This document shows positions 1,798 to 64,000 of a stretch of 64,000 nt of DNA, in pieces. Made by a program: the position numbers and the translations under genes. Under the pieces are notes generated by a model, which worked only from the letters and a program-made list of their open reading frames with translations, was not told the origin of the DNA and did not search any database. The stretch's first letter is position 1; each line of letters begins with the position of its first letter. Where the stretch lies: the IMG/VR virus record IMGVR_UViG_3300010354_000064, positions 1 to 64,000 of that record. The stretch is one strand, 5' to 3'. Source of the DNA: a virus.

Positions 1798-2334
1798 TTA
1801 CTGCCTCGTCCGCACCGTCAGACGGGGGACTGCTGGGGGCTGAGGGACTTGACGCAACACCGGAGGAGGCGGCGGAGGTACGAACTTGCGCGGTGGCGCG
1901 TGCTTGACGGTGAGGTCGAGAGCGACGAACGAAGAGTTCGCCGACCACGATGCAGCGACAGGCACATCCGCGAGCAGAGCCCCCATCTCAGACGACCCCG
2001 TAATCGCCACACCGGCAAGGGGGCAGTCCCCGAGAAGCGGCGCAGAGATAACGGAACCCGCTGAGAGAGCAGCATCGAGAGGGCAATCCCCCAGAAGCGA
2101 CGAAGCCGAGGCTGAGTCGCCCAACCAAGCCGCCCCAAAGGGAACGTCCCCGAGAAGCGGCATGGTAGCGGATGAGTCCGCCATCAACGTCGCCCCGAGG
2201 GGACAAGACACCGTGAGGCCCATGACGACCGATGAATCGGCCGTCCACGAAGCCCCAAGAGGCACGTCCCCAAGGAGCGGCGCGACGACGGAGGAGTCGG
2301 CCGAAATGGCCGCGTCGAGAGCTTCAGCGGCCAT
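1798..2334 (-). CDS. Tandem-repeat protein (~20-aa unit, LLGD[VC]PL.A.W..DS), probably structural
   Basis: About 7 imperfect repeats, then a Pro-rich tail. Directly downstream of a tail-fibre-like gene. Confidence 0.6.
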   Translation of the reverse strand: MAAEALDAAISADSSVVAPLLGDVPLGASWTADSSVVMGLTVSCPLGATLMADSSATMPLLGDVPFGAAWLGDSASASSLLGDCPLDAALSAGSVISAPLLGDCPLAGVAITGSSEMGALLADVPVAASWSANSSFVALDLTVKHAPPRKFVPPPPPPVLRQVPQPPAVPRLTVRTRQ

Positions 2335-10562: not shown

Positions 10563-10598
10563 CGTTGGTACTCGGGGGGCTCGACTCGTAGAGGGAGT
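10563..10598 (+). promoter_or_regulatory. Class I bipartite promoter, copy 1 (leaderless)
   Basis: CGTTGGTAC-N13-CTCGTAGA-N6-ATG; same geometry as five other copies. Confidence 0.75.
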
Positions 10599-10934: not shown

Positions 10935-10993
10935 GCGGTTCACCTGAGAGGGCTGGGGATGACCCCTAGCCCTCTTGTCGTTTCCCGAGGGGT

Positions 10994-11521
10994 ATGCGTC
11001 AGACCGCTGCCCAGAGAGTAGTCCACAGGTTCATGCAAGCCAGCGAGCATATCGAGATGAAGGGGGCCATCATGTTCTCGGCCCCCGCCGTGCGTGCCGC
11101 CCAGGAGAAGGGGGAGGAAATCCTCGCCCGCCTCATCGGGCAGGAGAAGGCCGACGAGATGGTCAAAGCCCGCAAGGCGCGCGACGGCGAGAAGGCTCAC
11201 GTCACCATCGCGGGACCGAAGGACGCCAAGGAAGCGGTAGCCCAGAAGGCCGCGAAGGACGGGCTCTCGAAGGGTGCCGCCGAGAAGGCCATCAAAGAAG
11301 ACCTTGCCGGGATGCGCGGTGGGAGCTTCACCGTGAAGGGGCTCGGGCACGCCGAGGGTGGTGGCAACGAAGCCTACTTCGTGGTCATCGACTGGCCCGG
11401 TGGGCGAGAAATCCGCGAGAAGCTCGGGCTCTCACCGGACGGTCAGGACTTCCACGTCACCGTCGGTTTCACGGGCGGGGACGTTCACGGGGTCCGCAAA
11501 GACAAGGTGGTTGCCCGTTGA
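10994..11521 (+). CDS. 2H phosphoesterase with N-terminal RVVHRFM leader
   Basis: Two HxT motifs (AHVTI, FHVTVGF) plus GLG...NEAYFVVIDWP...LGL...DFHVTVGF..GDVHGV.KD. Confidence 0.8.
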   Translation: MRQTAAQRVVHRFMQASEHIEMKGAIMFSAPAVRAAQEKGEEILARLIGQEKADEMVKARKARDGEKAHVTIAGPKDAKEAVAQKAAKDGLSKGAAEKAIKEDLAGMRGGSFTVKGLGHAEGGGNEAYFVVIDWPGGREIREKLGLSPDGQDFHVTVGFTGGDVHGVRKDKVVAR

Positions 11522-59047: not shown

Positions 59048-60004
59048 TCAAGCTCCGACGAAGGTTTCGAGCAGCAGGGTCTTCGCGTGAAACGCAAGCT
59101 GAGTCTTCGTCGCGCGCGCCTTCGCGAGCATCGAGTCGAGCCCCTGATGAAGGGTCTGCCAGGTAGTTGGGCTAGGCGAACGCATCTTCCGCAGGGTGTC
59201 TTTCACGTCGAGGTTCAGAACGCGGGTATCGTCCACGTCGAGCACGAGCAAGTCGTGAACGATGGTGTCGAGGAACCGCAAGGTCAAAGGCAAGTCCTTC
59301 TCTAGCTGGTCGAGAAGCAAGAAGACCCCCGCCACGTCTCTCGCGACCGCAGACGTGAGTAGCGATAGGGCCTTGTCGCGAAGAGCCAGACGACCAGACC
59401 CCCAGTATTGGATGGCCTTGCCTACCGAACCTTCGCCTAGTCGCGCGTAGACAAGAGCTTTCGTCACGTCCTTCTCGAACTGCTGCACCTTCTCGTGAAC
59501 GAAGGCTTCGGGCAGCGGACGGAAGTTCAGTACACCGCAACGCGACCGAATCGTCGGAAGAACACGAGCGGCTGACTCGGCAAGCAAGAAAATCCGGGCA
59601 GTTGCGGGAGGTTCTTCAAGCGTCTTGAGAAGAGCGTTCGCAGCAGGAGCCGTCATCCGGTCGGCTCCGTCGATGATGAATACGCGAAGCGCCGACTGCG
59701 TGGGATACGTGTCGATGGCTTCGATAAGCGAGCGTGCCGCGTCAACCCCGATGTCCTTGCCGTCCTGGGGGGCAAGAACGAGGAGGTCAGGGTGCATCCC
59801 CTGCGTAACCTGCAAGCAGTCCACGCACGAGCAGGCTGAAGACCTGTCGCCCGTGCAGAACAGTTCACGGGTCGTCTGAAGCGCAGCGTATCGGCGACCG
59901 ACCCCCTCGCCCCCAAGGAGTAGGAGGGGGTTCGTCAGGCGTCCTTCGACAACGCGCCGCAAGAACAGAACAGCATCATCTTGGTGTAGTACGTCATTCA
60001 ACAC
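59048..60004 (-). CDS. holB: DNA polymerase III delta-prime subunit
   Basis: G.EGVGR, C..C..C, HPDL, AANALLKTLEEPP, LPTIRSRC. Confidence 0.92.
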   Translation of the reverse strand: MLNDVLHQDDAVLFLRRVVEGRLTNPLLLLGGEGVGRRYAALQTTRELFCTGDRSSACSCVDCLQVTQGMHPDLLVLAPQDGKDIGVDAARSLIEAIDTYPTQSALRVFIIDGADRMTAPAANALLKTLEEPPATARIFLLAESAARVLPTIRSRCGVLNFRPLPEAFVHEKVQQFEKDVTKALVYARLGEGSVGKAIQYWGSGRLALRDKALSLLTSAVARDVAGVFLLLDQLEKDLPLTLRFLDTIVHDLLVLDVDDTRVLNLDVKDTLRKMRSPSPTTWQTLHQGLDSMLAKARATKTQLAFHAKTLLLETFVGA

Positions 60005-61296: not shown

Positions 61297-61707
61297 GTGA
61301 AGGCGTTACCAGTACTCCCCTGTCACCCGTGCCCACACGGTAACCGCTGCTGCTCGAAAGGAACCAACCTCCGAGACGATGAAGCGGCAGACATCGCAGA
61401 GAAGTACGGGGCCACGACTGTCGTGCTTCTGGTGGGGCACGAGGTCCACGAGAGATTTTCGGTCAACGGAGAAGCCGTCTCCGCAAGTACCCTCTGGAAT
61501 CGAGGTGCGCCCGAATGGGCAACAGCCGTAAGCCAGCGAGGGTGCGTATTCCTCGAACCCGACGGGTCTTGTCGGCTGTACGCGGAGTCCTTCTACCCGC
61601 AGGTCTGCCGGATGTTTCCGTGGAAGGATCTCGCATCGGCTGACCGCGCAGAAGACGCGGAGCTATGCCCCGCGCACGGTCAACCGATGGCGACGCAGAC
61701 CATGTAG
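61297..61707 (+). CDS. YkgJ-family (CxxCxxCC) cysteine-cluster protein
   Basis: CHPC...CC, GCVFL...SCRLY...P.VCRMFP. Confidence 0.8.
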   Translation: MKALPVLPCHPCPHGNRCCSKGTNLRDDEAADIAEKYGATTVVLLVGHEVHERFSVNGEAVSASTLWNRGAPEWATAVSQRGCVFLEPDGSCRLYAESFYPQVCRMFPWKDLASADRAEDAELCPAHGQPMATQTM

Positions 61708-61889
61708 GCCGCGAACCGCTCGGGGCACGGAGTACCCTCGCGCCGGACGGCCTCTTCGGCGATTTTGAGCCACAAGGGCTTGTTGTGGGCCGTCGTGGCC
61801 CACTCGCGGATGGACTTGCTCTCGACCTTCGCGAGGGCGCGAGAGAAGAACGCGCGGGCCTCGGACTTCATGGCGGAGTTGGTGCTCAT
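61680..61889 (-). CDS. Small hypothetical protein
   Basis: Starts at the class I promoter +1; typical codon usage. Confidence 0.7.
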   Translation of the reverse strand: MSTNSAMKSEARAFFSRALAKVESKSIREWATTAHNKPLWLKIAEEAVRREGTPCPERFAAYMVCVAIG

Positions 61890-61925
61890 GCTGCCTCTAC
61901 GAGGTGAGGAGGTCGTGTACCAACG
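61890..61925 (-). promoter_or_regulatory. Class I bipartite promoter, copy 4
   Basis: CGTTGGTAC-N13-CTCGTAGA-N6-ATG. Confidence 0.75.
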
Positions 61926-61934
61926 CCCCGACCC

Positions 61935-61979
61935 CAGAAACTACGAGAGCCGGTACCTCGGCCAAGGTATCCGGCTCTC
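61935..61979 (-). terminator. 3' terminal hairpin of the candidate ncRNA
   Basis: GAGAGCCGG-A-TACCTTGGCCGAGGTA-CCGGCTCTC followed by GTAGTTTCT. Confidence 0.55.
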
Positions 61980-62452
61980 AGCGACCAGTATGGCTCGTCG
62001 TCGCCCCGACCCTTTGGTGGTCGGCACCCCCGCGCTCTGGGTTCGCGGTCCCCCGGCTGCGTCCGCCGGACGACCTCTCTGACAGTTGCCCGTCTTGCCC
62101 CTTGGCCGGAGGCTCCCGTGAGAGACGGGAAGTTGGTGGGCTCGTTGCCACCAGGGAACGGCATCGAGAGCGTGGCCCTCGGCAGACCCGTTAGGTCGAG
62201 CCCGGAAAGGTTGGAGTGCGCCCCCGATCTCTCCTCGGGGGCTTGGAGCCGAGCAACCCTCTGCTCGGGGGAGTCCGGCCCTAGAAACCGGAGGTATCGA
62301 AAACTTGCCGGGCTCGTCACCCCGGCGGGAGCCTCGGTCTTTCCTACCATCCCCCCACTCTTGCGAGGGGGAGCCCGACCTCTTTCGAGGCCCCGGAACC
62401 AGCACCCTTGGTTAGCTGGCCTCCGGCCCGACCGTTTCGGCGTCGTCCCTAC
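61935..62452 (-). ncRNA. Candidate large structured non-coding RNA (~515 nt), family not recognised
   Basis: Has its own class I promoter but no start codon at +1. Nested long-range helices, more than 12 hairpins (three with GNRA loops), 3' terminator-like stem. Confidence 0.7.
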
Positions 62453-62488
62453 ACTCCCTCTACGAGGTGAGCCCGCTGACTATCAACG
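62453..62488 (-). promoter_or_regulatory. Class I bipartite promoter, copy 5 (drives the ncRNA)
   Basis: CGTTGATAG-N13-CTCGTAGA-N6, then GTAGGGACGAC. Confidence 0.75.
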
Positions 62489-62698
62489 GGTTTCTTCGTA
62501 GAGGGCGACCCTTCCTGCTGCCGCCTTCGCTTCCCACCGCTGCACCGCCTGAATGACACGGTGACGGTAGGAGCCGTCCGCTTCTGACGGCCGACGCGCA
62601 ACCTCGACGCCCATCGAACGGACGAGCCGCTCCAGGGCCGAGGTCGGCACCTGACGCAGTTCGTCGAACTTCAGGGTGATGGTCAGCGAGCGGCGCAT
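62483..62698 (-). CDS. Small hypothetical protein
   Basis: Starts at the class I promoter +1 (MRRSLT). Confidence 0.7.
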   Translation of the reverse strand: MRRSLTITLKFDELRQVPTSALERLVRSMGVEVARRPSEADGSYRHRVIQAVQRWEAKAAAGRVALYEETR

Positions 62699-62734
62699 AC
62701 CTCCTCTACGAGGTGAGCGTGCCGAGCACCAACG
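62699..62734 (-). promoter_or_regulatory. Class I bipartite promoter, copy 6
   Basis: CGTTGGTGC-N13-CTCGTAGA-N6-ATG. Confidence 0.75.
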
Positions 62735-62770
62735 GAGGGTCGGCACTTTTCTAGAACTACCGACGTTTCG

Positions 62771-64000
62771 TCACCCGCTCACCACAGAATCGGAGGGCTT
62801 CCTCTTGTGGAGCATGGCCTCGGTCGTCAACATCGTCCCAGCGACCGAGACGGCGTTCTGGAGCGCGCAGCGCACGACCTTGGCAGGGTCAAGCACTCCG
62901 GCATCGAGCAGGTTCTTGACCTCGAACGTCGTCGCATCGAGCCCGTGGTTGTCGTCCGCATCCTCGACGCGCGCAACCCAGAGGTCAGCCGACTCCCCGG
63001 CGTTCTGGCAGATGACTCGCAGAGGCTCGCGGCACGCCTTCAGGACGAGGTTGAAGCCAATCCACTCGGTGTCCCCCTCGGGAAGGTCGTATCGAGCGAG
63101 AGCCGCGCGTGAGCCCTCGTCACCATCGACCGCGAAGCCGACGAGCGCGTTGACCTGGAGAGCCGCGTGAATGAACGTCGTACCCCCGCCCGCAACCACG
63201 CCTTCGTCGATGCTCGACTTGGTGGCGTAGAGGGCGTCCTCCATGCGGGCTTTGAGTTCCTTCATCTCGGGTTCCGTGTGCGCGCCAACGCGAATCACGC
63301 AGACCCCTCCGAGGAGCTTGCCGAGACGCTCCCGAATTTTGTCGGCGTCGTACTCCGAGCCTGAGCGTGTGGCCTCGGCCTTCAGTTCGGCGATGCGTGC
63401 TTCGATGGCTTCGTCGGAGCCGCCCCCATCCGAGATGAGCGTCTCCTTGGCGGTGACGCGGATGCGCTTGGCCGTCCCGAGGTGTTCGAGGGTGAGCCCC
63501 TCGAAGCTCATGCCGACTTCCTTCGAGACGAAGGTCGCGCCGGTCAGTATGGCGATGTCCTTGAGCAGATAGCTCTGCTGCGTGCCGAAGCCGGGGGCCT
63601 TCACGAGGCACGAGAGGAACTGGTTGCGCTGGAGGTTCATCACGAACGTCGGGATGGCATCCCCAGAGAAGTCTGCCGCCATGATGAAGAGCGACCGGCG
63701 CTCGGCGAGGACGGCCTCGATGAGCGGGACGAGCGGACGGACGCTCCCAAGCGTCATGTCGGTCACGAGCACGTAGGGGTCGTGCAGGACCGTCTCCTGC
63801 TTACCCTCATCGGCGCAGAAGGCGGCGCTAGCCCAGCCACGGTCGAGCTTCATGCCGTCGGTTGTCTCGACAACCGTCGTGGCCTTCTTGCCCTCCTCGA
63901 TGTTGACAACCCCATCCTTACCGACCTTGGCGACCGCTTCCGCGATGACGCGGCCGATTTCCTTGTCCCCGTTGGCCGAGAGGGTTGCCACCTGGGCGAT
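62771..64000 (-). CDS. groEL: Chaperonin GroEL (5' part outside the window)
   Basis: SANGD.EIG, VGKDGV, GM..DRG, VKAPGFG, DIAILTG, ERLGKL.GGV, EDAL.ATK, GVVAGGG, GVLDPAKV.R.ALQNA.SVA. Confidence 0.95.
   Translation of the reverse strand: MAQVATLSANGDKEIGRVIAEAVAKVGKDGVVNIEEGKKATTVVETTDGMKLDRGWASAAFCADEGKQETVLHDPYVLVTDMTLGSVRPLVPLIEAVLAERRSLFIMAADFSGDAIPTFVMNLQRNQFLSCLVKAPGFGTQQSYLLKDIAILTGATFVSKEVGMSFEGLTLEHLGTAKRIRVTAKETLISDGGGSDEAIEARIAELKAEATRSGSEYDADKIRERLGKLLGGVCVIRVGAHTEPEMKELKARMEDALYATKSSIDEGVVAGGGTTFIHAALQVNALVGFAVDGDEGSRAALARYDLPEGDTEWIGFNLVLKACREPLRVICQNAGESADLWVARVEDADDNHGLDATTFEVKNLLDAGVLDPAKVVRCALQNAVSVAGTMLTTEAMLHKRKPSDSVVSG

Follow-up and report, generated by a model that had tools for sequence, protein, structure and literature searches.

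The window analysed here, a stretch of 64,000 nucleotides, covers bases 1-64000 of an IMG/VR record of 75,550 bp (IMGVR_UViG_3300010354_000064; GC 64%). CheckV put the completeness of the record at 16%, which points to a jumbo phage as its source, and GroEL relatives were numerous, a set of them 70-96% identical, on contigs of up to 550 kb, which makes the phage a member of a large jumbo-phage clade. The locus described below lies in a partial genome of a GC-rich jumbo phage from freshwater. Its genes are close-packed, predominantly on the minus strand, and show a strong codon periodicity (GC3 0.8-0.9, GC2 ~0.43). Toward the end of the window, groEL (62771-64420, minus strand) is the upstream neighbour of a predicted non-coding transcript of about 515 nt (61936..62452, minus strand), while holB (59048-60004, minus strand) lies downstream, beyond a block of small genes. 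A 71-aa ORF (62483-62698, minus strand) with its own leaderless promoter and an ATG at 62698 was found in the interval from groEL to the RNA. The TGA stop of this ORF (62483) falls inside the -35 element GTTGAT of the RNA promoter, so no terminator separates the two. The 71-aa product had no Pfam match and no counterpart in the related loci L008-L026 described below.

The promoter preceding the RNA belongs to a class with a fixed geometry, GTTGRT followed by TCACCTCGTAGAGG and four further nucleotides; the window has six such promoters and the 75.5-kb record nine. The A of an ATG is located at the predicted +1 in five of the six window promoters, and in all but two of the nine in the record. 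The exception within the window, as pointed out in the preliminary description, is indeed the promoter of the RNA (62453..62488, minus strand), in which GTTGAT (62487-62482) is followed by an 11-nt spacer, TCACCTCGTAGAGG (62470-62457) and AGT. Here GTA stands at the predicted +1, G being position 62452, a start site inferred from the motif geometry. The other exception in the record, at 71025 on the minus strand and beyond the window (L007 ~10990-11025), precedes a 144-aa ORF (70494-70928) with a leader of about 60 nt, so the promoter class is not strictly leaderless. The six window promoters, at 10565(+), 11518(+), 34393(-), 61923(-), 62486(-) and 62732(-), share a conserved CGTAGA (about -12 to -7) and GTTGRT (about -35); in these motifs they resemble the ECF-sigma type (CGT at -10) more closely than sigma-70, and a sigma-70 scan found none. 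A repeated promoter class TTGRY-N-ATAGCAGG was also sought in G019 and was rejected because a single copy occurred.

At its other end the RNA closes with a terminator-like hairpin (61936..61980, minus strand), placed directly before the next promoter. The terminal stem proposed previously is present in the sequence, with 16 bp followed by UAGUUUCU. The promoter-like and terminator-like elements occupy conserved positions on either side. Three lineages retain TTGAT and TAGnAGG with differing spacers, namely this phage, the related record L026 (TTGAT/TAGCAGG) and an abundant estuary relative (TTGATC and TAGTAGG, with another promoter spacer between them). At the place equivalent to the terminator, L026 carries a long hairpin with a GNRA cap and, after it, CUCGUUUCU; both genomes have a GUUUCU tail behind the terminator hairpin. 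The RNA may be co-expressed with small genes, as had been suggested, the one basis for this being the shared promoter motif.

A search of IMG/VR with a GroEL alignment yielded 19 related jumbo-phage loci with GroEL proteins 52-66% identical; single-query searches of the same database with GroEL or with the downstream 69-aa protein gave no close match. The order groEL, slot, 129-aa gene, 71-aa zinc-ribbon gene and holB is kept in all 19 loci. The slot after groEL (L008-L026, 6600-8300) is empty in most of them, carries about 1.5 kb of unrelated ORFs in three (L008, L009 and L017) and contains a homologue of the RNA in L026 only. The slot between groEL and the 129-aa/71-aa/holB block is a hot spot for accessory inserts. 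L026 (IMGVR_UViG_3300048575_000082) encodes a GroEL 58% identical to that of the phage studied here, and its RNA homologue of about 355 nt occupies the same slot; it was detected by nhmmer with an E-value of 2e-7, the match beginning right at the promoter, and by covariance model (CM) with an E-value of 2e-30. The groEL-downstream region of related phages, where homologues had been expected, thus supplied one homologue, while neither BLAST nor CM detected the RNA over the full length of the remaining 18 records. Its absence from these 18 records marks the RNA as dispensable for the clade and as a lineage-restricted accessory element.

Wider searches added no further homologue. There was no match to the RNA stretch by blastn against GenBank phages and none in an exact 32-mer scan of IMG/VR, and three RNA-motif patterns run against IMG/VR returned the contig of L026 and chance matches in coding sequence only. 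The GroEL of L026 used as IMG/VR query retrieved only itself. A motif scan of metagenomes gave 28 loci, all of them chance matches in GC-rich coding sequence, and a scan of genome contigs one chance match in a coding region of Vicinamibacterales.

The stretch or parts of it were present in public runs from at least 10 freshwater and estuary studies, and contigs of four such runs were compared with it. A contig of 201 nt from a metatranscriptome library spans 62282-62482, including the 5' domain, at 96% identity. It extends past the predicted start by 30 nt on the upstream side, and may represent read-through or DNA. A second RNA-library contig spans the small upstream ORF, 62483-62698 being covered for 100% by a metatranscriptome-library contig (X18). 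Such contigs carry no information on transcript ends, strand or expression. The abundant estuary relative shares 62306-62454 and continues with a different perfect hairpin after hairpin HC (see below). In one estuary run (X3), a contig of high depth joins 62333 to 62422, omitting hairpins HA, HB and HB', and another departs from the RNA at 62174, straight into a terminator-like hairpin. With sides this short, the contigs may reflect either natural, shorter forms of the RNA or relatives joined in error. The X3 joints 62333/62422 and 62450/62758 (short sides, low likeness) were left out of the evidence, as were the low word shares in runs X18-X20 and those parts of the stretch that had no cover in the RNA runs.

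Conservation between the two homologues is concentrated in a 5' domain of about 125 nt with four hairpins. Over the first ~150 nt the RNAs are 72-80% identical, compared with 63% DNA identity for groEL and 54% for holB. The first hairpin, H0 (62429..62445, minus strand, as for all elements of the RNA), is a CGAC/GUCG stem with a 9-nt loop; it starts 5 nt from the predicted 5' end, represents the first copy of a repeated motif discussed below, and its stem is identical in L026. HA (62393..62426) is an 11-bp hairpin with a conserved 11-nt loop, UAACCAAGGGU. Compared with L026, two of its G.U pairs are replaced by G-C and one C-G by U-A, and the loop core AACCAAGG is invariant. HB (62377..62392) is capped by the GNRA loop GAAA, which reads GCAA both in L026 and in an estuary variant (62385 T>G), and one of its pairs changes from C-G to G-C in L026. 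A second GNRA hairpin with a GCAA loop, HB' (62351..62373), forms a 25-nt insertion absent from L026; in a contig from an RNA library (X20), 62369 G>A together with 62355 C>T converts its pair C84-G98 to U-A. The last part (62307..62348) consists of a conserved single-stranded segment, AGGAA..CC.AGGCUCCC, and the 6-bp hairpin HC with loop GUGAYRAG. The closing pair of HC is G-C here and C-G in L026, and loop position 138 is G or A among the variants and L026. An enclosing helix HD is possible, if weakly supported; it would pair GAGGCUCCC (62327-62335) with the 3' strand GGGAGCCUC (62109..62117), and its equivalent in L026, read by eye, is GGCUCCC/GGGGGCC around HC and a much shorter insert.

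RNAalifold independently recovered H0, HA, HB and HC. In the conserved structure 94.9% of the cells pair, a value that falls to 29-51% once the partner columns are displaced by 1-3 positions. Relative to L026, a double change that preserves pairing occurs once in each of HA, HB and HC, three in all, and two single changes (G.U to G-C) preserve it as well; with the variants included, the count over two genomes and variant fragments is four double and two to three single changes. Of the covariation that the preliminary description had proposed to look for, a few compensatory changes and kept GNRA loops were observed, but with two full sequences this is not significant, 71 of 500 shuffles equalling the observed value. 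The sense strand shows conservation of the sequence and of a small number of base pairs.

Downstream of the 5' domain the two RNAs diverge. A variable central domain of about eight local hairpins (62118..62306) has no counterpart in L026. Internal direct repeats account for the extra ~160 nt of the window RNA relative to L026, and indicate that this length arose by duplication of 5'-domain hairpins. It is followed by a fast-evolving 3' hairpin array (61980..62094). The array includes copies 2 (62003-62027) and 3 (61980-62002) of a motif of about 25 nt, (G)GRGCGACGAC-loop-GGUCGGG or GRCGACGAC-loop-GGUCGGG, of which the first copy lies 5 nt into the transcript. Three copies (three to four) were counted here and four in L026, and in both genomes the motif is practically confined to the RNA locus. 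In an estuary variant the loops of the 3' array are changed and five small indels are present; the stems of the two motif copies are retained, and it is doubtful whether the array's first hairpin survives. As judged from these variants, the constraint on the 3' motif copies appears weaker than that on the 5' domain, and the changed loop sequences of the 3' copies make a sequence-specific repeated binding site less likely.

All hairpins listed in the preliminary description, including the three capped by GNRA loops, are literally present in the sequence, as are the two long-range helices GGACGAC/GUCGUCC and the 10-bp GGCCGGAGGC/GCCUCCGGCC. The global fold built on these helices, described as almost entirely pairable, did not hold. 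In the minimum free energy (MFE) structure 68% of the bases pair, and in L026 no stretch of at least 6 nt is complementary to its own 5' end, while its own version of the 10-mer pairs locally. The long-range helices were rejected for want of a counterpart in L026; the 10-bp helix is moreover specific to this genome and competes with the conserved HA. The MFE structure was likewise rejected as a fold model, since natural variants break its long-range pairs 138-255, 102-321, 98-325, 79-341 and 144-249; the local hairpins fit the variants. The architecture that these comparisons suggest is a chain of local hairpins with perhaps one enclosing helix.

The folding z-score was -3.4 for the sense strand and -1.5 for the antisense strand, and -2.5 against -0.4 in L026. 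Among 13 coding windows of the same genome used as control (mean z -1.25, sd 1.2), two reached -3.2 or lower. The sense-strand value is therefore low, as anticipated, but it is equalled by two of the 13 controls, for which reason the z-score alone is not decisive and was rejected as proof of structure. The stretch of a 178-aa ORF at 1798-2334 (minus strand), with degenerate repeats of about 25 aa (..PLLGDVPLGA..ADSS..), gave z = -6.8, so extreme values in this genome are possible without an RNA gene; its codon periodicity is unclear and TRF reported no DNA tandem repeat.

Comparison with known RNA families supported the earlier statement that the RNA could not be matched to the large structured RNAs known from phages. 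A cmscan of the whole window against Rfam 15 gave no match at gathering score. At 61600-62800 nothing was found at E<=1, and at E<=10 only noise was obtained there and at L026:6600-7100, in the form of miRNA, lncRNA and snoRNA models far below their thresholds. The families covered included ROOL, GOLLD, OLE, HEARO, raiA, RNase P, tmRNA, 6S, SRP, group I/II introns, Phage_pRNA and self-cleaving ribozymes. ARAGORN predicted no tRNA and no tmRNA in the window. No regular tandem repeats as in a type III antitoxin or a CRISPR array were found, the motif copies being irregularly spaced at 25-420 nt, and neither a toxin gene nor a cas gene lies beside the RNA, the neighbours being groEL, small ORFs and holB. 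Nothing in the present results points to a ribozyme in particular. No published description of the RNA was found in the literature and it has no Rfam 15 family; the family is probably new and undescribed.

Several other explanations of the locus were weighed. That it encodes a protein would be suggested by the two 154-aa ORFs open on the sense strand (61886..62350 and 61941..62405), or a small peptide might be produced. The stretch is non-coding, however: GC by codon phase over 61935-62452 is flat (0.66/0.66/0.70), 61891-62821 is the longest stretch without codon periodicity in the whole 75.5-kb record, and the three long overlapping ORFs had no Pfam match. In the homologue of L026, stops break every sense-strand frame, and tblastx between the two loci returned short pieces of similarity hopping between frames, which together exclude a conserved frame for 61886..62350. 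That ORF also crosses the terminator and the next promoter, and ORF 61941..62405 terminates inside the terminator. The transcript begins with GUA, which makes the leaderless initiation of the sister promoters impossible, and the indels between relatives (25 nt, 1 nt, 1-2 nt) are not multiples of three. The impression that the overlapping ORFs do not look protein-like was thus borne out, and the protein-coding reading is largely refuted and hardly credible. It is also very unlikely that the RNA is a highly divergent RNase P RNA, tmRNA, ROOL, GOLLD, phi29-type pRNA or group I/II intron, a reading that presumes divergence past the reach of the Rfam models. Two resemblances, serving as leads only, speak for it: AGGAAAGACCGAGGCUCC is similar to the P4/CR-I string of RNase P, and AACCAAGGGUGC to a stretch of E. 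coli tmRNA. Neither string is conserved in L026, the partner elements are missing, and neither homologue matched Rfam beyond noise at E<=10. The P4 strands of bacterial RNase P RNA are universally conserved, GGAAAGUCC... being paired with a 3' ...ACAGAAnCCGGCUUA. RNase P RNA was rejected because the required GGAAAGUCC reads AGGAAAGACC in the window, AGGAAUUCC in L026 and AGGAGAG in the RNA-library variant, and a 3' P4 partner (ACAGAAnCCGGCUUA) was not seen on reading the window sequence. For tmRNA, GGACGAC/GUCGUCC has A-U as third pair, has no adjacent T-arm and is absent from L026, and ARAGORN found neither tmRNA nor tRNA; no T-arm, CCA-type acceptor end, tag frame or flanking exons are present.

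Two further explanations were considered. The function of the locus could be one of the DNA itself, as an origin of replication or a regulatory region, with the three to four direct repeats of about 25 bp and internal dyad symmetry serving as iterons and the promoter providing transcriptional activation or an R-loop primer; activation or primer transcripts are found at lambda ori, T4 oriF and ColE1 RNA II. The repeats lie in the same orientation and are confined to the locus in both genomes, replication genes such as holB are nearby, and the rise in cumulative GC skew along the record ends at about 62 kb. The skew change is shallow, however, and coincides with a switch in gene orientation. An AT-rich unwinding element is absent, the repeat spacing is irregular with the first repeat exactly at the transcript 5' end in both phages, and the element is missing from the slot in 18 related phages. 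Moreover, signals at the RNA level are seen in the compensatory changes, the retained GNRA loops, the G.U pairs and the energy gap between sense and antisense, and an origin is judged improbable. Slightly less improbable, though still doubtful, is a functionless spacer or decaying insert, either what is left of a lost gene or a long 3' UTR belonging to the small ORF upstream, in which the hairpins would be those expected of any sequence with 66% GC. The coding control windows with similar z-scores, the lack of a terminator between the upstream ORF and the RNA, the RNA-library contig spanning the predicted start, the fast evolution of the centre and 3' part and the variability of the slot across the clade are in line with this. 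It does not account for a 5' domain conserved above groEL DNA between phages with 58% identical GroEL, for a promoter and a terminator flanking the stretch in both genomes, or for stem changes that preserve pairing, and 350-500 nt of junk is rarely kept in phage genomes so dense.

We consider it likely that the locus is an independently transcribed, structured non-coding RNA gene of a new family. The preliminary proposal of a new phage non-coding RNA stands in this respect, given the non-coding unit with promoter and terminator, the absence of a known family and the homologue in L026; its global architecture does not. A modular structured RNA with a proposed role in trans is, taken as a whole, the explanation we favour, with somewhat less assurance. 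In this model a conserved functional core of about 125 nt at the 5' end would be followed by an expandable hairpin array, grown by internal duplication of hairpin modules, and by an intrinsic-type terminator at the end. The role in trans itself is a tentative suggestion: the RNA might act as scaffold or decoy, through protein binding or self-association. In one option the repeated hairpins would bind several copies of one protein. In the other, the invariant HA loop (CCAAGG) would pair with a single CCUUGG near the 3' end, within or between molecules. Each RNA contains the HA-loop CCAAGG and one such CCUUGG, for which the chance estimate is roughly 1-3%, and the pairing is treated as a lead, not a result. 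Targets of the HA loop in phage mRNAs were also considered and rejected, with 7-mer matches only, at chance level. More speculative still is a new large class of jumbo-phage RNA in which the 5' domain would nucleate a homo-oligomer (CCAAGG/CCUUGG) or a multi-copy complex with a host or defence protein on the repeated hairpins (GACGAC...GGUCGGG); its role would then be that of a protein-free scaffold or of an anti-defence decoy in early infection.

The orphan large structured phage RNA is a kind already known. ROOL and GOLLD are large ornate RNAs, often of phages or prophages, for which cryo-EM revealed RNA-only homo-oligomeric nanocages (PMC12286853). Like them, the RNA described here is several hundred nucleotides long, non-coding, phage-borne, encoded by a stand-alone gene and rich in hairpins including GNRA loops. 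Set against the cages, the conserved CCAAGG loop and single CCUUGG would permit a kissing contact. Unlike ROOL and GOLLD, it has no Rfam match, no adjacent tRNA genes and a much narrower distribution, and its conservation is limited to the first ~125 nt. The pRNA of the phi29 family is likewise a phage-encoded structured RNA with its own promoter. It multimerises via an AACC/GGUU loop-loop contact, and the conserved HA loop here includes AACC..GG. pRNA, however, is about 120-174 nt long and belongs to small podoviruses, whereas the present RNA has no Rfam match and neighbours groEL and replication genes, with no link to packaging genes.

Several copies of a short hairpin motif per transcript are also a feature of protein-sequestering RNAs, namely CsrB/RsmZ, the type III antitoxin ToxI and the phage 'pseudo-ToxI' repeats, and by analogy with the decoys CsrB/RsmZ and ToxI a phage could sequester a host or defence protein with such an RNA. 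Unlike CsrB/RsmZ, no CsrA-type GGA-loop motifs are conserved in both homologues, and unlike ToxI there are neither tandem units of 34-36 nt nor an adjacent toxin gene, and the loops of the 3' copies vary between relatives. With RNase P RNA and tmRNA the RNA shares the size class and short strings (AGGAAAGnCC..GGCUCC, AACCAAGG.UGC), but their defining elements are missing and, within the reach of the tools, both are excluded.

Large structured RNAs without an assigned function are a rarity, several (ROOL, GOLLD) have a phage association, and each new family offers a chance to learn the role of such RNAs. The RNA is small enough for cryo-EM or SHAPE, its conserved domain is compact and its promoter clear, and the phages that carry it are abundant in freshwater and estuary metagenomes of at least 10 studies. 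If it is a decoy or a self-assembling scaffold, it would be an RNA-based addition to the takeover repertoire of jumbo phages; if not, it is another orphan non-coding RNA. In either case it illustrates growth by duplication of hairpin modules. Close to the RNA, a 136-aa ORF (61297-61707, plus strand) is oriented opposite to every neighbouring gene, with a weak periodicity and a sub-threshold match to DUF7531 (E 2.7e-4).
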